From: Escherichia coli
Lineage (GTDB): Bacteria > Pseudomonadota > Gammaproteobacteria > Enterobacterales > Enterobacteriaceae
Length of the DNA: 64,000 nt
Assembly (NCBI RefSeq): GCF_003991155.1
Contig: NZ_CP031293.1
Reading direction: 5' to 3' (one strand)
This document shows positions 2,573-64,000 of this stretch, in pieces. The stretch's first letter is position 1; every line of letters begins with the position of its first letter. Below the pieces are notes generated by a model. The model was not told the DNA's origin, searched no databases, and worked only from the letters and a program-made list of their open reading frames with translations. A program made the position numbers and the translations under genes.

Positions 2573-3130
2573 TTAAATAGACGTGAAAACTAATGTATTA
2601 CTTGTGGCATTCGTACATGCTGCTGCCGTAGCTGCCACATCGAGTGTTCCTCCTGCGGCTTTAACAACCTTGGTTCCAACCGTGGTAATGTAGAAATTAC
2701 CTGCTGCCGCTGTCGCAATCTTCACACATTCCGCTGCTGGCACATTATCGTATGTGATAGTGAAAGAAGAGCCAGCCGCTGATGATGGTCCTGTAGCTGT
2801 AGCAGCCAGCGTCACATTACCTTTAAAGGCATTAATGGGTTTAGCTGCCGTTCCTGACCCACTTAACATATTGTCAGGGAAGATTTTTGCCTGAACAGCC
2901 ACAGTATTTGTCAGGCCAGTAAAGCTTGATGCCGACGTGTATAATGCTTTAACACCTGCCTGTATGGTGGCAATGTTATTGGATTCTGCCTGCGCTCTTT
3001 GTGAAGCCTGAACCTTGGGATAAACGATAAAAGCCGCTACCACTAATGCAGCAATGATGCCCAAAACAAGTAATAGTTCGAGTAGTGAGAAACCTTTCTT
3101 GCTTTTTCTTTTGTTATTTAATAAAACCAT
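2573..3130 (-). CDS. pilS: Type IVb major prepilin, PilS-like
   Basis: Long basic leader [13 protein letters not shown] followed by [16 protein letters not shown], characteristic of type IVb prepilins; GGAGA RBS 6 nt before ATG. Confidence 0.65.
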
Positions 3131-3525
3131 TATTATCTCCTTTTTTGTTTTAATGATAACTCCTGTTATAACGCTTCTCTCATATCTGGCAATAGAAAGA
3201 GCAAGATATATTTAACTCTATCTGACAGACGGATGAATTAAAAAAGGCAAAGATTTCTCTTTGCCTTCCGGGAGATTTAAAAACAACATTTGTTATCACT
3301 ACTACTGTCATTACTACTTCCTCATGGGATATTTATCATATCTGATAAAAAAGTAATAATGACGTTCACTACATAAAGATAAAAATTAACAGATTACTGG
3401 TCAAACAGAACGCATGATTGAAAAGGAAAAAATATTAATAAAGGATGATCCTGTGTTCTGTTCTTTTATATAGATAACAGATAATAATTAGATATCAATA
3501 CCTGAAGCAAAATAAATTTAGTTTT

Positions 3526-3831
3526 TTATTTTTGTCTTCCATCCATTTGCGCCAGAAACTTCCTGCCTGCTTTTATATACGTTATTTTTTCAATATCATT
3601 CAGGTCAGGAACTGAAAGCAAAATCCCCATAACGAGTTCTTTATCCACCTGTTCGATATCGCAATGCATAGCTTTAGCTACTTCCGCGCCAAGTATAATC
3701 TTTAGCCTTGTTTCAATTTTCTTTCGTTCTGATTTCTCCAGAGACTTAAGACGATTAAGTTCAAGCTGAGCAAAAGCAACCTTTTGCTTTAATGTTTTTT
3801 CTGTTCTTGATCTTTTACTTTCATCACTCAT
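3526..3831 (-). CDS. Hypothetical small coiled-coil protein; weak resemblance to TraD-like relaxosome accessory proteins
   Basis: ORF; start overlaps the stop of the upstream gene by 4 nt (ATGA-type coupling); motif RKKIETRLKIILGAEVAKA recalled as similar to Ti-plasmid TraD, from memory only. Confidence 0.35.
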   Translation of the reverse strand: MSDESKRSRTEKTLKQKVAFAQLELNRLKSLEKSERKKIETRLKIILGAEVAKAMHCDIEQVDKELVMGILLSVPDLNDIEKITYIKAGRKFLAQMDGRQK

Positions 3832-4193
3832 ACAACATCATCCTTACCCAAAAAATAGGCAAATACTTCATCCACGCCTTTCATGGCGAGAACATCACTG
3901 AACAGCAAAATAGACGTCGCCAGATTTCCCGCTTCATCTGATGGTATAGACCTAAAGAACTCCATCACTTCATCTTCCTCATGGTATCGTGTCATCGCAT
4001 CAACTTTTATTTGCCATTCACCAATAGCAAAAAGCGCTGCTTCAAAGCAGGACTGAAATCGTTCTATATCAGGGCCAAAATGATACGTTATTCCGTCTTT
4101 ATATTTCGCAATGAAAATTTCAGTAATTTTTTCATTACTGCTCTGAAGAATATGAGTATCAATAGTAAAAACATAGGCCAGTTGTGCATTCAT
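3828..4193 (-). CDS. Hypothetical protein, first gene of a two-gene overlapping operon
   Basis: Clean 121-aa ORF with AT-rich upstream region; no recognisable motif. Confidence 0.4.
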   Translation of the reverse strand: MNAQLAYVFTIDTHILQSSNEKITEIFIAKYKDGITYHFGPDIERFQSCFEAALFAIGEWQIKVDAMTRYHEEDEVMEFFRSIPSDEAGNLATSILLFSDVLAMKGVDEVFAYFLGKDDVV

Positions 4194-4497
4194 TTTTTAT
4201 CTCCTTTGGTTATCGAATATTATATTTAACTATCACCAAAGAGAAATGACGTCAAATTAATAAAGTATTAGATATTACAATAGGATGTTAATCCTAAATC
4301 TACAACCGAAAATATCCCTTGTAATTATCCTTAATTTAAAATATTAAGTCATATGCACAATAATTAGTGATTCACCTAATCCAAAATCATCAGTAATTAA
4401 GTTATCAAATGATACACATTATTCTAAAACTTCTTTTATCTATATCCTCCAACGTTTACAATGCATGATAGGCAACGATTAATCATAAGAGGTAATT

Positions 4498-20639: not shown

Positions 20640-20860
20640 TTGAAGTTCAACTGTTTTGTCATCAGAGACGGGGGAATGGCTAAGTTGTTGTTAAGAGTGT
20701 GAACTCGAGAGCATAAAAGTGGATGCCCGACGCGCGGCAAAATGGTAAAAAACAGCATCAGTAGTAAGAAAAATTGAGCGAGAGAAAGGAATTTTAATGC
20801 AGGGATTTATGCATGACAAAATCAAAAATACTTTGTAAGTGATTGATTTTGTTGAATGAT

Positions 20861-23746: not shown

Positions 23747-25709
<1,963 letters not shown>

Positions 25710-51542: not shown

Positions 51543-54500
51543 ATGGCCGACAACTTTACAGCCCGTAAGCACGGACAATGGAAAGTCATCAGCACCAAAC
51601 CGGATGTCTGTAAAACACCACGCGGAGATTCCACACCGCCTGTCCCCTACCCTGTCACAGCCAATATGGCTGAAGCAGTGATGGTGGTGCAGTCGGTGAA
51701 GCTGAACGGCTGCCCGGCAGTGGTCCTAAACCAGAGCACCATCCCTCAGACAAAGGGCGATGCCGCAGGTGCGGCAAAAGGTGTCAGCAGCGGTACAGTG
51801 GGTGATGTCTGCGAGCCGCTGGACCACAGCGAGACAGTATTTTTTGGCGGCAAGCCGATACTGCGTCACCACGATGAGTTCTGGATGAACAGCCGTAACA
51901 CCATCGGCCTAATCGTGGGCCAGCCGCCACCGGCAGGCGTGCCTGCGGAAGAAGCGGACCCGCCGGATGAACCGGAGACGGAAGAAGAGGAAGAAAAGAG
52001 CAGCTGGCTGGACTGGGTGCAGACAGGACTGGATATTGCCGGGTTTGCACCGGGCTTTGGTTTTTTTGCCGATATGCTGAATGCGGGTATCAGCCTGGCG
52101 CGTGGTAATTATGCTGACGCGTTTATGTCTGTGGCGGCCTCACTTCCGGGGATAGGTGATGCGGCAGCGGCTGGCAGGATGGCAGTTAAAGGACGAAAAG
52201 CAGCAAAGGCGGCTAAAGAAGCCGCCGAACGAGCCGCAAAGAAAAAGCTGGAGAAGGAGGCGGCAATGCGCTCCCGTGCGCTGAGAAAAGCCCAGAAGAA
52301 AGCGGCAGCTAAAAAGAAAGGGGGTATCGTTAAGGGGAAAGCGAAAAATAACAAAGGCAAAGGTAAGGGTGCGGAAAGCAGTGATTGTACCAAACCCGGC
52401 GAACCCGTGGACGCCGGAACCGGCGACTTTCTCCAGCACTTCAGCGTTCTTTCCCTTCCCGGCTCACTTCCTCTCACGCTTTCCCGGTTTTACCGTTCTC
52501 AGGCACAACATGGCGGCATCTTTGGTCCCAAATGGACCGATGAATGGTCCGTATCCCTGAAGGTACACACTGACGGCAACCTGCACTTCACTGACGGTGA
52601 AGGGGTGGAACTGTACTACCCCATTCCGCAGGACGGCATTTTTGAGGGTGCAGCGAACTCCCGCCAGGCACACTACCGGCTGACGGGCGACATGAGCGGA
52701 GAACTGTCGTTGTCCGACCGCCGCACACAGCAGACACAGATTTTTTCTCAGGCAGGCACAGGTACTTATTTGCTGTCTGCCCTTCATGACAATTACGGCA
52801 ACCGGATTGATTTTATCCGCACGGACGGCCTGCTGACAGAAATCCGCCACAGCGACGGCTACACGCTCGCGCTTGCCTGGCTACAGCAGCAACTAATGAG
52901 CATTGACCTGGCAACACCGCGGCGTCAGCGCCTTGTCACCTGTCAGTACGATGATAATGGTTATCTGGCAGAGTGCGATACTTTCCAGTTTTCTCATCTG
53001 TGGCATGAATACACGACTGAAGGGTTTATGACCCGCTGGCGGGATACGGATAAAACCTGCGTGGATATCCGTTACGACCCGCAGGGGCGCGCCATCAGCA
53101 CCCTGTCAACCGAAGGCTATTACGACGACCGTTTTATCTATAACGATGAAGAGCACTGTACCACCTACGTGGATGCAGAAGGCGGCGAAACCCGTTACTG
53201 GTATAACGAAGACGGCCTGGTCACCCACAGCACCGACCCGCTGGGCCGTGAAGAGATTACAGTATGGGAAAACACGCAACTTCAGTCGCGCACCGACGCG
53301 CTGGGGCGTAAAACAGCGTATGAATATAACGATGAGGGCGATATCTGGCATGTTGCCCTGCCGGGCGGCTACAGCCTCTATTACGACTACAACGACGCCG
53401 GGCAGTTAACCCGCCTGACCCTGCCGGGCGACCAGGTATGGCTGTGGGACTACGACGATAAGGGCAGCATGGTCTGCCTGACCGACCCGCAGGGCCGGAA
53501 ACAGCAGTTCAGCTACAGCCAACAGGGTGATTTACTGGCGCGGATTATGCCGGGCGGAGCCACCTGGCGCTGGAGCCATGACGCCCTGCACCAGGTGCGC
53601 GAGACCACTGCGCCGGACGGCGGCGTCACGCAGACTGAACAGGATATGCTGGGCCGCCTGCTGAGTGTGAAAGACCCGCTGGGCTTCACCACGCAGTTCC
53701 GCCACAGCAAAACCCACGCTGGGCCGCTGGGCAGCGTGGAAGAAATTAACCGCCCGGATGGCGTGCGGGAACTGATGCGCCAGAACAGTGAAAAGCTGCC
53801 GGAGAGCTTCACCGATGGCGAAGGCAAAACCACCCGCTACGAATATGGTGCATTTGACCTGTTAACGGCAGTTATCCGCCCGGATGGTGAACGGCTGGAG
53901 TGCCGCTACGACAAGCTGACCCGCCTGACCGAAATCACCAACGCGGAAGGTGAGCACTACCGTCTGGAATATGATAAAGCCGGGCAGCTTATCGCGGAAA
54001 CCGACTTCACCGGGCGCACACTGACCTACAGCTACGATGCGGCAGGCCGCTGTACCCGCACCACCTTCCCGGACGGCACTCACCTGAACCGCCGCTACAA
54101 CGTGACCGACCAGGTAACGGACGAGGAAGTCACCCAGGGCGACAGCAACCGTACCCTGAGCGCCACCACCTTCCTCTATGACACGCTGTGCCGCCTGGTG
54201 GAGGCGAAAAACGATGATGCCATCGTTACGTATGAATATGACAGTGCCAGCAGGGTTGTGGCCGAGACAATCAACGGCAGGCGTACAGAATACAGTTACG
54301 ACAATAATCTCGACACAGTTTCACAGCGCACCACCGCAGGCATCACAGAGCACTTCACCCGCAACCTGATGGGCTATCTGACCACCTGGCAGATAGCCGA
54401 CCATGCCCCGCTGACATTTGAACATGACCTGCGCGGCATGGAAACGTCCCGACGCAGCGAGGCCGGGTTTTACCAGACGCTGGCTTACACCCGCACAGGA

Positions 54501-55961
54501 ATGCCAACGAAGCAGAATGCCGGGGACCACCGGGCCGGCTCGGATGAGCGGAATAAAAGCCTGAAGCGCCAGTGGCTGTATGACAAAGCGTATAATCTGA
54601 CCGCAATCGCCGACTCGCTGCGCGGCTCCATGTTCAACACCATCACGGCGAACGACCAGATAAGCCACGCCACCTGGACGGGTGATTCCAGTCAGTTTCC
54701 GCTGTGTGAGGAACTGTTCACTTACGACAAAAACCTGAACATCACCCGCCGCCAGACCCGGGTGAATGACATACTGGAAAGCGAAACGCACCAGCAGAAC
54801 CGGCATGGACGGGTGATATCAAGTGAGCATGAAGGCTGGCGGCACTCAACGCACCGCATCAATCCGCAGACAGGAAAACCGGAAGAAGGGAAATTTGTCC
54901 GGGTGGTGAACGCCCATAACGTCACCTGGAAATACGATGTTAACGGCAGGCTGATACAGAAGCTGGTCGATAAAGGCGGTTACCGACCGCTGGAATGGCG
55001 CTACAGATGGGACGCGCGCAGCCAGCTAACCGGGCTGGAAACCCCGGATGGTGAACGCTGGGAATACAAATACGACCCCTTCGGCAGGCGCATCAGCAAG
55101 CGCTGCACCAACCGCGACAAACCCGGTATGGATTTTCACTGGAATGGCGACCAGTTGACGGAGGAAATTCCGGTCGGCGCTGACAGTAGTCCTGATACTG
55201 AAAACAGCATCCGCTGGATATATGAGCCGGGAAGTTTTACACCGATTGCGCGTTATGAGAAGGGGCAACTGCATTATGCAGTGACGAACACGGTTGGCCG
55301 CGTACAGGAACTGCTGACAGAAAACGGCCTGATAGTCTGGAAAGGCAAGCAGCAGCTATGGGGCCGTGAGGAAGGCAGAAATAAGAAAGATGCGCCCACA
55401 TGCCGGTTACGTTTTCCGGGGCAGTACGAGGATGTGGAATCAGGGTTGTACTATAACCGGTTCCGGTACTATGATTGCGAGACAGGACAATATCTGTGTG
55501 CTGATCCGTCAGGATTGGACGGAGGGATTAATCCATATGGGTATGTGCATAATCCATTAGGGTGGGCAGACCCTTTTGGGCTAGCCAAAAAGAACGCTCA
55601 GAATACAGTTTTCAGATATCTGAGTGCAGACGATCGTATTCGATATGAGAATGGTCAAAGTTTATTACCTAAAGGTGAGTTTGGTTCAATAGTTGAACAT
55701 GTTGATGGAAAAAATACAGGACATATTTCTGCATCGCTTACCAAGTGTGCAGCTAAAATATTTGATTCGGGCAATGGGTATATAGAAATTGATGTTCAAA
55801 AAATTATCGACAGTGGTATATCATTTATTGATCACAAGAATGTTATGCAAGCGGTTCGTCGTAGCGGCTCTTTAACTAACAGGAGAGATGCCGAAAGAGC
55901 ACTAGAAGTTCTCTTCAAAGGTGAAATTCCCTTTGATGCAATTATTCGTCATGTTATATAA
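51543..55961 (+). CDS. rhs: PAAR-like (DUF4150) Rhs-repeat polymorphic toxin with variable C-terminal toxin domain
   Basis: N-terminal PAAR-like region; many YD/Rhs repeats; demarcating motif PYGYVHNPLGWADPFGL at about 55540-55583 followed by an unrelated AT-rich 125-aa C-terminus. Confidence 0.9.
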   Translation: MADNFTARKHGQWKVISTKPDVCKTPRGDSTPPVPYPVTANMAEAVMVVQSVKLNGCPAVVLNQSTIPQTKGDAAGAAKGVSSGTVGDVCEPLDHSETVFFGGKPILRHHDEFWMNSRNTIGLIVGQPPPAGVPAEEADPPDEPETEEEEEKSSWLDWVQTGLDIAGFAPGFGFFADMLNAGISLARGNYADAFMSVAASLPGIGDAAAAGRMAVKGRKAAKAAKEAAERAAKKKLEKEAAMRSRALRKAQKKAAAKKKGGIVKGKAKNNKGKGKGAESSDCTKPGEPVDAGTGDFLQHFSVLSLPGSLPLTLSRFYRSQAQHGGIFGPKWTDEWSVSLKVHTDGNLHFTDGEGVELYYPIPQDGIFEGAANSRQAHYRLTGDMSGELSLSDRRTQQTQIFSQAGTGTYLLSALHDNYGNRIDFIRTDGLLTEIRHSDGYTLALAWLQQQLMSIDLATPRRQRLVTCQYDDNGYLAECDTFQFSHLWHEYTTEGFMTRWRDTDKTCVDIRYDPQGRAISTLSTEGYYDDRFIYNDEEHCTTYVDAEGGETRYWYNEDGLVTHSTDPLGREEITVWENTQLQSRTDALGRKTAYEYNDEGDIWHVALPGGYSLYYDYNDAGQLTRLTLPGDQVWLWDYDDKGSMVCLTDPQGRKQQFSYSQQGDLLARIMPGGATWRWSHDALHQVRETTAPDGGVTQTEQDMLGRLLSVKDPLGFTTQFRHSKTHAGPLGSVEEINRPDGVRELMRQNSEKLPESFTDGEGKTTRYEYGAFDLLTAVIRPDGERLECRYDKLTRLTEITNAEGEHYRLEYDKAGQLIAETDFTGRTLTYSYDAAGRCTRTTFPDGTHLNRRYNVTDQVTDEEVTQGDSNRTLSATTFLYDTLCRLVEAKNDDAIVTYEYDSASRVVAETINGRRTEYSYDNNLDTVSQRTTAGITEHFTRNLMGYLTTWQIADHAPLTFEHDLRGMETSRRSEAGFYQTLAYTRTGMPTKQNAGDHRAGSDERNKSLKRQWLYDKAYNLTAIADSLRGSMFNTITANDQISHATWTGDSSQFPLCEELFTYDKNLNITRRQTRVNDILESETHQQNRHGRVISSEHEGWRHSTHRINPQTGKPEEGKFVRVVNAHNVTWKYDVNGRLIQKLVDKGGYRPLEWRYRWDARSQLTGLETPDGERWEYKYDPFGRRISKRCTNRDKPGMDFHWNGDQLTEEIPVGADSSPDTENSIRWIYEPGSFTPIARYEKGQLHYAVTNTVGRVQELLTENGLIVWKGKQQLWGREEGRNKKDAPTCRLRFPGQYEDVESGLYYNRFRYYDCETGQYLCADPSGLDGGINPYGYVHNPLGWADPFGLAKKNAQNTVFRYLSADDRIRYENGQSLLPKGEFGSIVEHVDGKNTGHISASLTKCAAKIFDSGNGYIEIDVQKIIDSGISFIDHKNVMQAVRRSGSLTNRRDAERALEVLFKGEIPFDAIIRHVI

Positions 55962-55980
55962 AATAGGAAGGAGTGGAATA

Positions 55981-56274
55981 ATGCCTGCACTATCTGAGTA
56001 CTCGAATGTACACAACACTGTTTTTAATATTTTGATTTGTAAAGGATATCGATTGTGGCATGAAAAAAAACAAGAAAGATATTATGCCGAAAAAGATGGT
56101 TGGGATTTTGTAGCCAATAGCCCGTGTGCTCTCTTGGGGCTCATTGCTATTTATGAATATAAAAAACCCGATCATTATTATGAGTACTGGTGGAAAGATG
56201 AAGGATTACATTTAGAAAAAAACATTAGTGAAATCGCTCCTGAATATAACTCAATCATTTTAAAAAATAATTAG
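55981..56274 (+). CDS. Putative Rhs immunity protein
   Basis: Small AT-rich ORF immediately after the toxin domain, GGAAGGAG RBS before ATG 55981. Confidence 0.5.
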   Translation: MPALSEYSNVHNTVFNILICKGYRLWHEKKQERYYAEKDGWDFVANSPCALLGLIAIYEYKKPDHYYEYWWKDEGLHLEKNISEIAPEYNSIILKNN

Positions 56275-56299: not shown

Positions 56300-56810
56300 G
56301 GTAATAATAACAAACGAAACCCTCAACGGCAGACGGACGGAATATGGCCACGACGCAGAACAGGATTATGTCACCCGGCGCACCACCGCAGGCATTACGG
56401 AACGTTTCACCCGCGGGTTGATGGGTGAGCTGACATCGTGGCAGATAGCCGACCATGCGCCGCTGGCATTTGAATATGACCTGCGCGGCCAGGAAACATC
56501 CAGACAAAGCGAGGCCGGATTTTACCAGACGCAGGGCTACACGCAGACAGGAATGCTGACAACGCAGCGTTCGGGAAGCCAGGCAGAGCCGGAGGCGAAG
56601 AATAAAGACCTGCAACGCCAGTGGCTGTACGACCATGCGTATAACCTGACGATGATATCGGACACGCTGCGCGGGACGATGGTCAACAGCGTGACAGCGA
56701 ACGACCAGATAAGCCATGCCACCTGGACGGGCAGCAGTAATATGCCGATGAGTGAGGAACGCTTCCTCTACGACAAAAACCTGAATATCACCGCCGCCAG
56801 ACCTGGGTGA
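56300..56810 (+). pseudogene. Orphan Rhs core fragment, frameshifted relative to the downstream CT ORF
   Basis: Near-duplicate of main rhs about 54270-54770; a 1-nt difference near 56795 (ccc to cc) breaks the frame. Confidence 0.6.
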
Positions 56811-58030
56811 ACGAGGTACTGGAGAGCGAGACACATCAGCAGCAACAGCATGGCCGGGTGGCGTCGCGTGGACACAAAGAATGGCGACACTCAACGCACC
56901 GGATTAACCCGGACACTGGCAAGCCGGAGGAAGGGAAATTTGTCCGGGTGGTCAACGCGCACGGTATCACCTGGAAGTACGATATTAACGGTCGTCTGGT
57001 GGAGAAGCTGGTCGATAAAGGTGGCTATCGCCCTCTCCAGTGGCGTTACAAATGGGATTCACGCAGCCAGTTGACCGGGCTGGAAACACCGGATGGTGAA
57101 CGCTGGGAGTATAAATACGACCCGTTCGGCAGGCGCATCAGCAAACGCTGTACCAGCCACGATAAACCCGGTATGGATTTTCACTGGAACGGCGACCAGT
57201 TGACGGAGGAAATTCCGGTTGGTGTGGATGGCAAACCGGAAGACGAAAACGCCATCCGCTGGATATACGAGCCGGGAGATTTCACGCCGTTTGCGCGTTA
57301 TGAGAAGGGGCAACTGAATTATGCGGTGACGGACACGGTTGGACGAGTACAGGAACTGCTGACCGAAGACGGCCTGATTGTCTGGAAAGGCAAGCAGCAG
57401 CTATGGGGACGTGAGGAAGGCATCAATAAGGGCGATGCACCCACCTGTCGGTTACGTTTTCCGGGGCAGTATGAGGACACAGAATCGGGACTGTACTATA
57501 ACCGGTTCCGGTACTATGATTGCGGGACGGGGCAGTATATCTCTTCAGATCCGATTGGGCTGAGAGGGGGAATAAAACCATATGGCTATGTTCATAGTCC
57601 ATTAAATTATATTGACCCATTAGGTTTAGCTAACGCTAAAGTTATAGATAATGTTTTGCATATTGTGGATAAATTTGGAGTAAATGGGGCTGCTCCTGAT
57701 ACTGCAGCATCCAGAGAATTGGCTGAGTTTGTAAAAAGATGGAACGAGCAGATAGTGGCGAATGGTGGTTCAATGGCCAGACGTTCTGTTTGTAAAGAAG
57801 TCAGAAAAGCAGCAAGTGAAGCCGCCGCTGCTGAGAGAAAACTTAACCCAAGTTTATATGCTAATGGTGAAGTGGCGGGGCATATTCCAGATGTTGGATG
57901 GGGTGGAAAAATTGATGGTCCGTTTATGCCGTTAAGTCCAAAAGTAAATTCTTATATTGGTGGGTTAACTCAAGCAGTGCCTGTTGGTACAACTTATACA
58001 TCGGTAAGAATAGTGGACATTATACTATGA
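56807..58030 (+). CDS. Orphan Rhs C-terminal region with alternative toxin domain
   Basis: Rhs core ending in PYGYVHSPLNYIDPLGL followed by a distinct 139-aa C-terminus; GTG start, no own promoter evident. Confidence 0.6.
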   Translation: MNEVLESETHQQQQHGRVASRGHKEWRHSTHRINPDTGKPEEGKFVRVVNAHGITWKYDINGRLVEKLVDKGGYRPLQWRYKWDSRSQLTGLETPDGERWEYKYDPFGRRISKRCTSHDKPGMDFHWNGDQLTEEIPVGVDGKPEDENAIRWIYEPGDFTPFARYEKGQLNYAVTDTVGRVQELLTEDGLIVWKGKQQLWGREEGINKGDAPTCRLRFPGQYEDTESGLYYNRFRYYDCGTGQYISSDPIGLRGGIKPYGYVHSPLNYIDPLGLANAKVIDNVLHIVDKFGVNGAAPDTAASRELAEFVKRWNEQIVANGGSMARRSVCKEVRKAASEAAAAERKLNPSLYANGEVAGHIPDVGWGGKIDGPFMPLSPKVNSYIGGLTQAVPVGTTYTSVRIVDIIL

Positions 58031-58554
58031 AAAAATTAAAAGAATTGATTAACGATATTTTGGTTGATTTAAAAATAAATATAACGGAATTACCTGTCAC
58101 TTTACACAGCCATGATAAAGTACCCACGCTAAAAAAAGATTACTATAGAAATCTTAGCCCTATGCTAAAGGTTAGATTTGGTATGTTCTCTAGTTGGAAG
58201 AATGCAACACATGGGGATTGGCTTTCAATAGAAGAGATGATGGAAATTTGGCGTGATGATTTGGTAATAAATGACCGATTGTGGCGAATTAAGGAGAATC
58301 AGATAGCTGCTCGTAATAATTGGGACAATGATGCTTCTTCGCTTTTCAAAAATAATAGATTATCACTTTTTGCTGGAAGTGAGTCTACCTATGAACGAAT
58401 ATATCTGCTTTGGTTAGATAGTGAAATTGAACCTGAGATATGGGTATATGACTGCAATGGTGAATCGAGATATAAAAATCTAGAGTCTTATTTAAATGCA
58501 TATATAAATGACGATGTTAGTGCTAGTAATGAGTCATGGAGAGCCAAATACTGA
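58027..58554 (+). CDS. Putative immunity protein for orphan toxin 1
   Basis: AT-rich ORF overlapping the toxin stop (ATGA). Confidence 0.5.
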   Translation: MKKLKELINDILVDLKINITELPVTLHSHDKVPTLKKDYYRNLSPMLKVRFGMFSSWKNATHGDWLSIEEMMEIWRDDLVINDRLWRIKENQIAARNNWDNDASSLFKNNRLSLFAGSESTYERIYLLWLDSEIEPEIWVYDCNGESRYKNLESYLNAYINDDVSASNESWRAKY

Positions 58555-58777: not shown

Positions 58778-60310
58778 ATGGAAACCTCCCGACGCAGCGG
58801 GGCCGGATTTTACCAGACGCTGGCTTACACGCGCACAGGGATGCCAGCGAAGCAGAATGCCGGGGACCACCAGGCCGGGCCGCATGAGCGAAATAAAAGC
58901 CTGGAGCGGGAATGGCTTTACGACAAAGCGTATAACCTGACCGCAATCGCCGACTCGCTGCGCGGCTCCATGTTCAACACCATCACGGCAAACGACCAGA
59001 TAAGCCACGCCACCTGGACGGGTGATTCCAGCCAGTTTCCGCTGTGCGAGGAGCTGTTCACTTACGATAAAAACCTGAACATCACCCGCCGCCAGACCCG
59101 TGTGAATAACGTCCTGGAAAGCGAAACGCACCAGCAACAGCAGCATGGCCGGGTGATATCCAGTGAGCATGAAGGCTGGCGGCACTCAACGCACCGCATC
59201 AATCCGCAGACAGGAAAACCGGAAGAAGGGAAATTTGTCCGGGTGGTGAATGCCCATAACATCACCTGGAAATACGATGTTAACGGCAGGCTGGTACAGA
59301 AGCTGGTCGATAAAGGTGGCTACCGCCCTCTCGAATGGCGCTACAGATGGGATGCAAGAAGCCAGCTAACCGGACTGGAAACCCCGGATGGCGAACGCTG
59401 GGAATATAAATACGACCCGTTTGGCAGGCGCATCAGCAAACGCTGCACCAACCGCGACAAACCCGGCATGGATTTTCACTGGAACGGCGACCAGCTAACG
59501 GAGGAAATTCCGGTTGGCGTTAACGGTAAACCGGAAGACGAAAACGCCATCCGCTGGATATACGAGCCGGGAGATTTCACGCCGTTTGCGCGTTATGAGA
59601 AGGGGCAACTGAATTATGCGGTGACGGACACGGTTGGACGAGTACAGGAACTGCTGACCGAAGACGGCCTGATTGTCTGGAAAGGCAAGCAGCAGCTATG
59701 GGGACGTGAGGAAGGCATCAATAAGGGCGATGCACCCACCTGTCGGTTACGTTTTCCGGGGCAGTATGAGGACACAGAATCGGGACTGTACTATAACCGG
59801 TTCCGGTACTATGATTGCGAGACGGGGCAGTATATCTCTTCAGATCCCATAGGATTACTTGGGGGGATAAATCCTTATGGATATGTTCGTAACTCGCTGG
59901 AATTGATTGACCCTTGGGGGCTAGACAGTAAACGCGCTCGACTCCTCAAACAAAAAGGATTCCAAGAACATCATATTATCAGCGATAAAAACAGCTTAAC
60001 CAAAAACCATCCATTGTTGAAGGCCGCGGCATACGACCTACAGAAAATGAAAAACAAGATTTTCTTACCTACAAAATGTGAACTTCATGCAACTCGATCC
60101 ATTCATAAAGGGAGGCATCAAAAAAAGGTAAGTGAAAACCTGGCAAATGAAATGGACAAAGTGTTAGAACACGGGAGAAAACATGGGTGGACGCAAAAAC
60201 AATACAGTGACGCACTTGACGAAATAGTTGCTAAAGAAAGAGCCCTCTTGAAATCTGGCCATAGAGCTTTAAATAAAAACAGACGTGCATGGTCTGTTTT
60301 ACTAACTTAA
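58778..60310 (+). CDS. Orphan Rhs C-terminal region 2 with HNH-superfamily-like nuclease toxin domain
   Basis: Homology to main rhs begins about 58712; ends in PYGYVRNSLELIDPWGL then a C-terminus containing FQEHHIISDK ... HATRSIHKGRH. Confidence 0.6.
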   Translation: METSRRSGAGFYQTLAYTRTGMPAKQNAGDHQAGPHERNKSLEREWLYDKAYNLTAIADSLRGSMFNTITANDQISHATWTGDSSQFPLCEELFTYDKNLNITRRQTRVNNVLESETHQQQQHGRVISSEHEGWRHSTHRINPQTGKPEEGKFVRVVNAHNITWKYDVNGRLVQKLVDKGGYRPLEWRYRWDARSQLTGLETPDGERWEYKYDPFGRRISKRCTNRDKPGMDFHWNGDQLTEEIPVGVNGKPEDENAIRWIYEPGDFTPFARYEKGQLNYAVTDTVGRVQELLTEDGLIVWKGKQQLWGREEGINKGDAPTCRLRFPGQYEDTESGLYYNRFRYYDCETGQYISSDPIGLLGGINPYGYVRNSLELIDPWGLDSKRARLLKQKGFQEHHIISDKNSLTKNHPLLKAAAYDLQKMKNKIFLPTKCELHATRSIHKGRHQKKVSENLANEMDKVLEHGRKHGWTQKQYSDALDEIVAKERALLKSGHRALNKNRRAWSVLLT

Positions 60311-60322
60311 CAGAGAAAATAT

Positions 60323-60880
60323 ATGTATAGATGGACAATCCCAGAACAATATGCCAATAAGTATATTGGAGAATATCAATATGAATCTTTTGATTACTTA
60401 CTTTTTTCTCATAGCACACCAATTGAAAGAGTTGAGAATATCAATCCAGTCATTATCTACGCGATGCCCGATGAAATGATAAATAAATATGATTGCTTGC
60501 CAAATAGTTCATTGATCCCCGTAGTTAATGAACGACTAAAGGACTTCCTGGAAACACATGCCAAAGGTAATGTTGAGTTTCATAAAATAGACCTTCACAC
60601 GAACAATGGACTCAAAGATGGTTTTTATCTTTTGAATACACTCACAAAACTACCGTTAATTGATATGCAGCACTCTCATTGCCAGTATATTCCCGGAACA
60701 ACAGCGATCATGGGGTTTGAACAGGTTTTTTTTATTGAAGAGCCTCCGGAAGATTTTTGCATTGCACGATGCGCAGAATATTCATCTTATCTTATGTTAT
60801 CTGATTCATTAGTAAAAAAAATGAAAAAAGAAAAATTTAAAGGAATTTCATATTCGAAAGTTCCTGTTCACCGAGGTTAA
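60323..60880 (+). CDS. Putative immunity protein for orphan toxin 2
   Basis: 185-aa AT-rich ORF 13 bp after the toxin stop. Confidence 0.5.
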   Translation: MYRWTIPEQYANKYIGEYQYESFDYLLFSHSTPIERVENINPVIIYAMPDEMINKYDCLPNSSLIPVVNERLKDFLETHAKGNVEFHKIDLHTNNGLKDGFYLLNTLTKLPLIDMQHSHCQYIPGTTAIMGFEQVFFIEEPPEDFCIARCAEYSSYLMLSDSLVKKMKKEKFKGISYSKVPVHRG

Positions 60881-60964
60881 AATAATTGGACATATAACAA
60901 ATATATTAAATCGGTAGCATCTCCAGGGAAGGATCATCGTATTCGTATGCCGTAGGCACGCCGT

Positions 60965-61357
60965 AATCTGGTATAACGAAGACGGCCTGCTCACCCGCAG
61001 CACCGACCCGCTCGGTCGGGAAGAGATTACGGTATGGGAGAACACGCAACTCCAGTCACGCACCGATGCACTGGGGCGTAAAACAGCGTATGAATACAAC
61101 GATGAGGGCGATATCTGGCACGTCGCCCTGCCGGGTGGTTACAGTCTGTACTATGACTACAACGACGCCGGACAGTTAACCCGCCTGACCCTGCCGGGCG
61201 ACCAGGTATGGCAGTGGGATTACGACGATAAGGGCAGCATGGTCTGCCTGACCGACCCGCAGGGCCGGAAACAGCAGTTCAGCTACTGCGCACAGGGGGA
61301 TTTACTGGCGCGGATTATGCCGGGCGGAGCCACCTGGCGCTGGAGCCATGACGCCCC
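60965..61357 (+). repeat. Rhs core remnant (duplicate of main rhs about 53196-53590)
   Basis: About 390 bp nearly identical to the internal rhs segment, no start codon. Confidence 0.7.
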
Positions 61358-61507
61358 AGGGAACAGGGAAAGATCACGTAACGCTGCTTTTTTGTACTAA
61401 ATAATTCGCATTTTATGTTTAAAAATTGAGATATTCCTCATTACCTAAAGCTTTTTTTTATTGCTTATACATGATCAAATACTCCTTACATAATTAAGGA
61501 GAACAAA

Positions 61508-62644
61508 ATGGAACTTAAAAAATTGATGGAACATATTTCTATTATCCCCGATTACAGACAAGCCTGGAAAGTGGAACATAAATTATCGGATATTCTACTG
61601 TTGACTATTTGTGCCGTTATTTCGGGTGCAGAAGGCTGGGAAGATATAGAGGATTTTGGGGAAACACATCTCGATTTTTTGAAGCAATATGGTGATTTTG
61701 ATAATGGTATTCCTGTTCACGATACCATTGCCAGAGTTGTATCCTGTATCAGTCCTGCAAAATTTCACGAGTGCTTTATTAACTGGATGCGTGACTGCCA
61801 TTCTTCAGATGATAAAGACGTCATTGCAATTGATGGAAAAACACTCCGGCATTCTTATGACAAGAGTCGCCGCAAGGGTGCGATTCATGTCATTAGTGCG
61901 TTCTCAACAATGCACAGTCTGGTCATCGGACAGATCAGGACGGATGAGAAATCCAATGAAATTACAGCTATCCCTGAACTTCTTAACATGCTGGATATTA
62001 AAGGAAAAATCATCACAACTGATGCGATGGGTTGCCAGAAAGATATTGCAGAGAAGATACAAAAACAGGGCGGTGATTATTTATTCGCTGTAAAAGGAAA
62101 TCAGGGGCTGCTTAATAAAGCCTTTGAGGAAAAATTTCCACTGAAAGAATTAAATAATCCAGAGCATGACAGTTACGCCATTAGTGAAAAGAGTCACGGC
62201 AGAGAAGAAATCCGTCTTCATATTGTTTGCGATGTCCCTGATGAACTTATTGATTTCACGTTTGAATGGAAAGGACTGAAGAAATTATGCGTGGCAGTCT
62301 CCTTTCGGTCAATAATAGCAGAACAAAAGAAAGAGCCAGAAATGACGGTCAGATATTATATCAGTTCTGCTGATTTAACCGCAGAGAAGTTCGCCACAGC
62401 AATCCGAAACCACTGGCACGTGGAGAATAAGCTGCACTGGCGTCTGGACGTGGTAATGAATGAAGACGACTGCAAAATAAGAAGAGGAAACGCAGCAGAA
62501 TTATTTTCAGGGATACGGCACATTGCTATTAATATTTTGACGAATGATAAGGTATTCAAGGCAGGGTTAAGACGTAAGATGCGAAAAGCAGCCATGGACA
62601 GAAACTATCTCGCGTCAGTCCTTGCGGGGAGCGGGCTTTCGTAA
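61508..62644 (+). CDS. ISAs1-family transposase (H-repeat-associated protein)
   Basis: [18 protein letters not shown]...[20 protein letters not shown] matches H-rpt/ISAs1 transposases found beside rhs loci. Confidence 0.85.
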
Positions 62645-62645
62645 T

Positions 62646-62762
62646 CTTGCCCTGGGGTTTTGGGCTAACGAAATGGAAAATTTAACATAAATTTAATTCA
62701 TGCTCTTGCCCTGATTTCGGGCTGACATAATAGTGAAGATTTTAACACAAATTTAATTCATG
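62646..62762. repeat. Two imperfect tandem direct repeats of about 57 bp
   Basis: cttgccctg...ttaaca(t/c)aaatttaattcatg occurs twice back to back after the transposase stop. Confidence 0.5.
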
Positions 62763-62813
62763 TCCTCATCCCAGTATAGACTTTAATTTTATTTTTTTGA
62801 TAAGGTACTACAT

Positions 62814-63647
62814 ATGGCTTTCGTTTCTGCGTTAGTTAATTTGCGTTATGATTTAAACAAATATATTGTAGAGTTACGACGCATTTCAAATCTTGCCGCG
62901 ACATTTCTTATGGAAGATGATTTTATTAAGAATTTCTATCTTAATGAAGTTGAAATAAGCATAAATAATTATAATTTTAGATTCAATAACGAGCGAAACC
63001 CATTCAAGCAAAGGGAAATAGTTTTTGAACTTAAAGAAGAAGTTGAGTTGGAAAAAAAAGAATATGATATATTAAGAATGAAAGATCATGTTACTTATAT
63101 GGTAACTGATATGTTTGAAGAACAAGGCGTGTTAAAATATGTAAAAATATTTGGAGGGGTTGCTACAGGAGGAATAGAACTTTTCACTGCCTATGGGTAT
63201 TATCAATTGGGTAAAACATTACACCTTAGAAGATTACGTGGGATAGCAATTGTTTTTGCTTCTTATGGCGTTGATAATATATGGGAGTCAGTCTCTCCTT
63301 TGATTTTTGAAGAAGCGAATGCAGGGCCTCTTAGACGTGTTATTCGGGGAATTGCTGGTGAGTTTGGAATAAGTGAAGATGATTCTGATTTAGGGTATAG
63401 TTTTGTTGAATTTTCATTGTCCTTATATAATACTTTTAATGCAAGAAAATTGTTTCCGAATGAAAATAGGTTAGTTATAGGTGTGGGAAGAAAAAGGCCA
63501 GGGACTGGTAGGCTTTTTAATAATGTAAGCTGGGATTATGCATCTAAATGGTCAAAAATGAATACAAATATGAAGATTTGGAATTTAGGGTATAGCGCTT
63601 ATAAAGCCAAACTGGAATTTTATGATGAGAAATATAAATTTAAATAA
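62814..63647 (+). CDS. Hypothetical protein
   Basis: 277-aa AT-rich ORF. Confidence 0.35.
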   Translation: MAFVSALVNLRYDLNKYIVELRRISNLAATFLMEDDFIKNFYLNEVEISINNYNFRFNNERNPFKQREIVFELKEEVELEKKEYDILRMKDHVTYMVTDMFEEQGVLKYVKIFGGVATGGIELFTAYGYYQLGKTLHLRRLRGIAIVFASYGVDNIWESVSPLIFEEANAGPLRRVIRGIAGEFGISEDDSDLGYSFVEFSLSLYNTFNARKLFPNENRLVIGVGRKRPGTGRLFNNVSWDYASKWSKMNTNMKIWNLGYSAYKAKLEFYDEKYKFK

Positions 63648-63723
63648 TATTTCACATTACGTACTTTTAAAAAAGTATAATTATTAGCCGGTTAATTCAA
63701 TTATATAACACAGCCTCATTGCG

Positions 63724-63966
63724 CTAAAATAAAATTCGTATACCAAGTTTTATCAGCTTTAACTGAGTGATGATCTTTACATTATTGTTTTTTGCATCTG
63801 AGCATAAAATCATGACACTAAATATTGAAAACACAGCAGACATAAAGAAAAAAGCGGCCCCTCTTTCCAAGAGGATTCCGAGAATGAAAGCAAAAAATGC
63901 CACTGCCGGAAACCATAGCGACAAAGCGTCTTTTGCAGAGTCATATATCACATCTATTAGTGTCAA
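63724..63966 (-). CDS. Hypothetical small membrane protein (doubtful)
   Basis: 80-aa ORF with two hydrophobic segments. Confidence 0.2.
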   Translation of the reverse strand: MTLIDVIYDSAKDALSLWFPAVAFFAFILGILLERGAAFFFMSAVFSIFSVMILCSDAKNNNVKIITQLKLIKLGIRILF

Positions 63967-64000
63967 ATCTTTAGTTAAATTTGGATGAAGAGTTTTTTAA

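Follow-up and report, generated by a model that had tools for sequence, protein, structure and literature searches.

The apparent tandem repeat at the distal end of an Escherichia coli rhs array linked to a T6SS is, on the evidence of alignment and translation, two homologous right ends of ISEc26-type elements arranged head to tail, which were most likely left behind when ISAs1 elements inserted serially into the right ends of one another and deletions followed. The region lies in a 64,000-nucleotide stretch of an E. coli chromosome, here called the window. Overall, it is ordinary mobile-element and IS debris, the decayed distal end of the rhs array, and its ingredients (Rhs-associated H-rpt/ISEc1, IS-in-IS nesting, and rhs fragments) are each well known already. 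The value of the analysis is thus mostly one of annotation: the distal end of a rare T6SS-linked rhs array is mapped exactly, and the “repeat” is best entered as two ISAs1 (ISEc26-type) end relics, and neither as a repeat region nor as a recombination site.

The array starts with vgrG, a DUF2169 gene and then the gene for a 1472-aa PAAR-Rhs protein at 51543–55961. Two orphan rhs-CT/immunity modules were recognized by Pfam search: one at 56418–58554, and a second at 58778–60310 with an AHH nuclease tip, accompanied by Imm11 at 60323–60880. The downstream neighbors of the array region are cbl, nac, and a tRNA-Asn gene. Within the array, a frameshift near 56807 splits the first orphan module (56418–58554), whose 175-aa downstream gene has no Pfam match, and a 117-aa ORF (55921–56274) overlapping the 3′ end of the main Rhs gene is likely an immunity gene. 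Of 5,426 complete E. coli genomes, only 30 have the arrangement from 60300 to 64000, and in these it is 100% identical. Since these 30 complete genomes were assembled independently and are 100% identical over the stretch, the repeats are no assembly artefact, and the locus is real sequence of one lineage. Searches of E. coli with the flanks for intermediates or empty sites returned the same 30 genomes only, and the search for a donor species or an intermediate among species-representative genomes gave 0 matches to the degenerate core TGRARAWTTTAACAYARATTTAATTCATG.

Two imperfect direct copies follow the stop codon of the transposase gene discussed below, with a period of 59–60 bp and three 1-nt indels. 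In the register in which they were first described (62645–62702 against 62704–62762), 49 of 61 positions are identical, and the first copy seemed to begin at the transposase stop because the repeats drawn in this way start with TCTTGCCCTG, the terminal sequence of the preceding element. Alignment and translation give different boundaries, both on the + strand: relic A, formed by the terminal 59 bp of an ISAs1 element of the ISEc26 type, at 62655–62713, and relic B, the last 61 bp of another ISEc26-type element, at 62714–62774. In this register the two units align globally with a score of 24, against −10 ± 4.5 for shuffles, and 0 of 2000 shuffles reach that score. The window has exactly two occurrences of the 22-mer core TTTAACAYAAATTTAATTCATG (0 expected), and a repeat search of the window finds the cores of both units. 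Tandem Repeats Finder reported nothing at 62640–62780, owing to the indels and the identity of ~78%, and pairwise alignment was used instead.

When the repeat region was compared with all E. coli genomes by a distant BLAST search, ~600 of them matched one unit at 85%–87% identity, and the matching sequence is the right end of ISEc26-type elements or of what remains of them, as in O157:H7. Three such ends were aligned with the units, and each unit proved to be the terminal ~60 bp of an ISEc26-type element, consisting of the 3′ end of the transposase gene and the right inverted repeat (IR). The homology among independent ISEc26-type copies stops directly after …CTCTTGCCCTG; their right IR is TTCATGCTCTTGCCCTG, and the left IR of ISEc26 is CAGGGCAAGATCATGAA. 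Transposases of the ISEc26 subgroup have a C-terminal extension, GFRxxKxxxLT(Q/E)(I/M), which is missing from ISEc1, and both units encode such an end up to the stop codon: GFWANEMENLT in A and FRADIIVKILTQI in B, where ISEc26 has GFRTDKMK(N/I)LTQI. The right IR of A is intact, matching TTCATGCTCTTGCCCTG at 17 of 17 positions, and that of B is decayed, with TTCATG kept and an outer part, CTCATCCCAG, that agrees at about 8 of 11 positions. Identity to ISEc26-type ends is 51–52/59 (88%) for A and 46–49/59 (83%) for B, while A and B agree with each other at 45 of 58 positions (78%), and are thus farther from each other than each is from the ISEc26-type ends. The likeness to ISEc26 of O157:H7 extends over the last ~60 bp, including the C-terminal extension and the right IR; unlike that element, A and B keep only the terminal 59–61 bp, and the identity of 78%–88% marks them as relics of related but distinct members of the subgroup. 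Both are cut at nearly the same internal point, at about positions 1247 and 1249 of the 1305-bp ISEc26.

The preliminary description was therefore right that two imperfect direct repeats follow the stop codon, though not in their size of 57 bp. Its proposal that they might be the IS terminus holds insofar as they are termini of older ISEc26-type elements, and fails insofar as they are not those of ISEc1, which ends at 62654. It had also named two outcomes that would refute it: an assembly artefact, which the 30 identical genomes contradict, and ordinary IS terminal sequence found at all copies, to which the occurrence of the unit as the right end of ISEc26 or its remnants in ~600 genomes comes close. 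Recurrence of the unit at other rhs loci of the same genome was not found: the A+B stretch stands at one place per genome, solely in the 30 genomes of the lineage, and these hold no other ISEc26-type right end (one place per record). An ISAs1-derived MITE, by which we mean a short element with both IRs, a target-site duplication (TSD) and multiple genomic copies, was considered for A and B and rejected: they are right ends only, lack a TSD, and are confined to one lineage, with a single occurrence in each genome.

The element in front of the relics is a complete ISEc1 (H-rpt, ISAs1 family) of 1291 bp on the + strand at 61364–62654, delimited by BLAST and by the shared ends of independent copies. 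Its transposase gene, 378 aa and intact, lies at 61508–62644 on the same strand (Pfam, NCBIfam). The protein has the domains DDE_Tnp_1_assoc (PF13808) and DDE_Tnp_1 (PF01609), scores 414 bits against NCBIfam NF033564 (ISAs1 family transposase; cut-off 70), and is named “ISAs1-like element ISEc1 family transposase” by PGAP; its identity is 98% to YhhI of K-12 (the H-rpt protein of RhsB) and 59% to the ISEc26 transposase. The ends of the element are IRL CAGGGAAAGATCACGTAACG and IRR …CGTAATCTTGCCCTG, which form an inverted repeat (CAGGGAAAGATCACGTAA in IRL against CAGGGCAAGATTACGAAA in the reverse complement of IRR). Six copies were compared, namely the window copy and those at the ydcC locus, yhhI/RhsB, the rhs gene of the yafV locus, RhsC, and a genomic island: all start with CAGGGAAAGATCA… and finish with …CGTAATCTTGCCCTG, and their flanks are unrelated. 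BLAST matches at ydcC, yhhI, and other loci span positions 1–1291 of ISEc1, and the window copy is 99% identical to the other copies.

Target duplications of 10 bp are present at two of the relatives: ATTGGAACCC at locus L009 (copy at 3000–4290), for which strain RMDEC465 (H266) has the uninterrupted empty site, and GCGTTAAACA in strain KSC1031 (L004, copy at 2663–3952), where ISEc1 lies inside ISEc26. Ends of the type seen at 61364 and 62654 are consequently true transposition ends. The duplications and the empty-site counterpart are also direct evidence that ISEc1/H-rpt has transposed within E. coli; transposition of H-rpt had not been observed according to PMC3032704, where H-rpt in Rhs C-terminal tips is mentioned. 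The window copy itself has no target-site duplication, its flanks being …CAGGGAA and GGGTTTTGGG, and since its relatives carry TSDs of 10 bp, the flanks must have been rearranged after insertion. The element is complete and probably still active. It shares with the K-12 H-rpt (yhhI in RhsB, ydcC in RhsE) the length of 1291 bp, the 378-aa transposase and the CAGGG…CCCTG ends, as well as the orientation of the rhs gene and a position downstream of it. Unlike those copies, it lies directly against a mid-core rhs fragment whose type, a T6SS-linked PAAR-Rhs, is rare, and it has two relic ends of a different ISAs1 subgroup behind it. The association of H-rpt with Rhs is reportedly long established, going back to the Hill laboratory papers of the 1990s (Zhao/Hill 1993–94).

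The rhs fragment on the other side of ISEc1 is a mid-core remnant at 60961–61356 on the + strand, identified by alignment and Pfam, with solid homology over 60968–61356. By local alignment this part corresponds to 53198–53586 (+ strand) of the main PAAR-Rhs gene (51543–55961), with 367 of 395 positions identical (93%), and it covers residues ~552–681 of the 1472-aa main Rhs core. A Pfam RHS_repeat match (PF05593, E = 2e-20) marks it as a Rhs/YD-repeat fragment, and PGAP annotates 61026–61400 in strain WW2 as “RHS repeat domain-containing protein.” The homology ends sharply at 61356, where the main gene goes on with …CTGCACCAGGTG, and the remnant has no C-terminal toxin, no DPxGL boundary and no 3′ end of the core. 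Compared with the main gene, 27 of 387 nucleotides differ, 21 of them at third codon positions, and 26 of 129 codons differ, 21 synonymously and five non-synonymously. This predominance of synonymous differences implies that the remnant diverged inside a functional gene and comes from another, once-functional rhs allele; judged by its substitutions, it is no recent local duplicate of the resident rhs gene, but the relic of a diverged allele.

These results bear out much of what the preliminary description had said of this part: a rhs core remnant and an intact ISAs1-family element (H-rpt, which is ISEc1) do lie at the end of the rhs array at approximately the coordinates it gave, the length of 390 bp for the rhs piece fits the aligned 60968–61356, the transposase is an intact 378-aa ORF with ISAs1 domains and 98% identity to YhhI, and the remnant together with H-rpt is, in outline, the footprint of past rearrangement that it had proposed. 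Only the term “duplicate” needs qualification, in that the homology to the internal rhs segment is real (93%) and a simple copy is not, with 27 of 387 nucleotides different, mostly at synonymous sites.

We also compared the remnant with the orphan rhs-CT/rhsI modules (Koskiniemi et al., 2014; PMC3967940), taking as their marks a 3′ core end that includes the DPxGL boundary, together with a variable toxin domain and an immunity gene to match. As in those modules, a displaced rhs fragment lies downstream of the main gene and has a high-identity stretch in common with it, here 389 bp at 93% against 522 bp at 95% in Salmonella LT2 (PMC3967940). Unlike them (PMC3967940), the remnant is mid-core and has neither toxin domain nor immunity gene: it holds core residues ~552–681 only, and then ISEc1 follows, so that it was not counted as such a module. 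Recombination between the remnant and the main gene could only truncate Rhs, with no swap of toxins. The segments 53198–53586 and 60968–61356 form a 389-bp direct repeat of 93% identity, 7.8 kb apart. Recombination across this repeat could delete the 7.8 kb and so destroy the toxin array, not diversify it; with the tip of the main toxin, every orphan module and the associated immunity genes gone, the N-terminal half of Rhs would be left joined to a short IS-derived tail.

Two short stubs flank the remnant. The first is an 18-bp solo ISAs1-type, left-IR-like sequence, CAGGGAAGGATCATCGTA, at 60924–60941 on the + strand, 43 bp past the stop codon of Imm11 and separated from the rhs remnant by ~20 bp. 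It was found by its match to the IR consensus CAGGGMARGATCAY, to which it has zero mismatches, and is one of two such + strand sites in the 64 kb. No IS body stands behind it, the likeness to the left ends of ISEc1 and ISEc26 stopping after 15–18 nt, and no relative of the stub was found elsewhere in E. coli. An ISEc26-type left end was considered for it and set aside: with a similarity of only 15–18 nt, the stub is merely IR-like. The second is the 7-bp CAGGGAA at 61357–61363 on the + strand, which, read directly, is identical to bases 1–7 of ISEc1 and is possibly the last trace of the left end of a resident element. In two rhs-associated ISEc1 copies the 7 bp preceding the IS are similar to its own initial bases, with CAGGGAC at L010 (2490–2510) and CAGGGAA in the window (61350–61370); the former can be read as rhs coding sequence (RYYNPGQG) and the latter cannot.

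The identity, the boundaries and the relic nature of every part follow directly from these comparisons; the order of events and the mechanism of the deletions we infer as follows. An ISEc26-type element, the source of B, would have stood at the end of the array. A second ISEc26-type element, A, would then have inserted ~60 bp from the right end of B in the same orientation, and ISEc1 in turn at almost the same place in A. Deletions would afterwards have removed the left-hand portions of both older elements, along with the remainder of the rhs gene, either by recombination between the direct repeats formed by IS bodies or ends, or by IS-mediated adjacent deletion. Both routes would erase target duplications, which would explain why the TSD is missing at every junction. 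The gradient of decay, with the IRR of ISEc1 intact, that of A perfect, and that of B degenerate, fits the successive arrival of B, A, and ISEc1.

A precedent for such nesting exists in strain KSC1031, with ISEc1 cleanly inserted into ISEc26 and flanked by its TSD. The pair of families and the orientation are the same there, and the resident was likewise entered within its final ~110 bp; in contrast to the window, which has lost the left parts and the TSDs and has two stacked relics, KSC1031 has kept both halves of the resident and the 10-bp TSD. IS elements commonly target one another, and nesting is a general phenomenon (PMC5756416). Other stacked right-end relics, in the same orientation as the neighboring element and without TSD, are an 83-bp relic that abuts an ISEc26-type element on a metagenome contig, with a junction free of TSD (L016, 1816–1899), a 50-bp ISEc1 end relic after an 84-bp spacer (L010, 3839–3972), and a 23-bp ISEc1 end relic after another IS fragment (L007, 4644–4666). 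On the other side, all 30 genomes with the locus are identical and no intermediate structure was found. The nearly identical cut points of A and B, if these inserted independently, need either a hot spot or a coincidence, and the other nested or stacked cases do not demonstrate a hot spot, since they lie 83 and 110 bp from the end. The 7-bp CAGGGAA and the 18-bp stub at 60924 fit a history of serial insertion only loosely. Nor do right ends of ISEc1 outnumber left ends genome-wide, the right 70 bp occurring at 20,838 places and the left 70 bp at 24,499, so that a general bias towards right-end relics is not seen at this 70-bp scale.

The same cut points are the chief attraction of a tandem duplication in situ, by which one ~60-bp right-end relic of the ISEc26 type would have been copied locally, through slippage or unequal exchange between short repeats of the CCCTG or GGGTTTCG type, and the copies would then have diverged. 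The units begin within 2–3 bp of the same internal position, follow each other exactly head to tail, and have in common a GGGCT where ISEc26 has GAACT and L003 has GGTCT. We nevertheless regard such a duplication as unlikely: A and B differ at 13 of 58 positions (22%), with a net in-frame length difference of 3 nt, and this divergence sits badly with the 99% identity of the adjacent ISEc1 copy and with a locus that is invariant in 30 genomes. The distances, by which A and B are each nearer to ISEc26-type ends than to each other, point the same way, although the tree is star-like, and both arguments count only weakly.

Readings that give the repeats a role of their own fare worse. They might be an extended right end of ISEc1 with reiterated transposase-binding sites, the element then ending near 62713 or 62774, and unit A does close with the same terminal 10 bp, TCTTGCCCTG, which the ISEc1 transposase might use as an alternative end. 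This is very improbable, however, given that six independent copies stop at …TCTTGCCCTG with unrelated sequence beyond, that TSDs and the empty site delimit an element of 1291 bp, and that A+B is restricted to the 30 genomes of the lineage, at one copy each. We give still less credence to a functional cis element, whether a site-specific recombination site, as had been suggested initially, a small RNA, or a promoter or leader of the DUF4225 gene, even though the units lie 40–160 bp upstream of the DUF4225 start codon. There is no credible Rfam match in 60500–64000 that would mark a structured RNA, folding is no better than that of shuffles (z = −0.11), no sigma-70-like site is present on the + strand within 62650–62810, an adjacent recombinase gene is absent, and the coding end of the IS and its IR fully account for the sequence. 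Nothing was found in support of the recombination site or of a terminator, and the repeats are probably without function today.

Returning to serial insertion, ISAs1 elements might prefer the last ~60–110 bp of a resident relative, entering in the same orientation, with the body of the resident then lost. Such self-targeting of the right end would possibly be guided by transposase bound to the IR of the resident element. If true, A and B, cut 2–3 bp apart, would mark an insertion hot spot, and the preference could help explain why H-rpt accumulates in tandem in O-antigen clusters and where Rhs arrays end. We consider a preference of this kind quite unlikely. A fixed insertion hot spot 59 bp from the end of ISEc26 finds no support in E. 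coli, where the classes of ISEc26 remnant are either full-length or start 110 bp from the end, the latter from a single event at the yafV locus.

The DUF4225 gene (PF13988, by Pfam) at 62814–63647 on the + strand lies outside the IS debris. A second ISEc1 stands in the same orientation beyond the end of the window (L001, 15252–16541, equivalent to window positions 64151–65440); it is 96% identical, frameshifted and without TSD. The DUF4225 gene and ~0.5 kb of AT-rich DNA are thereby placed between two direct copies of ISEc1, in a layout like that of a composite transposon. Past the second copy, a 554-aa ORF has no Pfam match, and the IS may have truncated it at the 5′ end. Finally, ~2,000 genomes, among them K-12, BL21, and TOP10 derivatives, carry an ISAs1 element that matches ISEc26 at 94% only as far as position ~1207 and diverges from it beyond, which is also where ISEc1 sits within the ISEc26 of KSC1031; the divergence may indicate mosaic right ends within the ISAs1 family.
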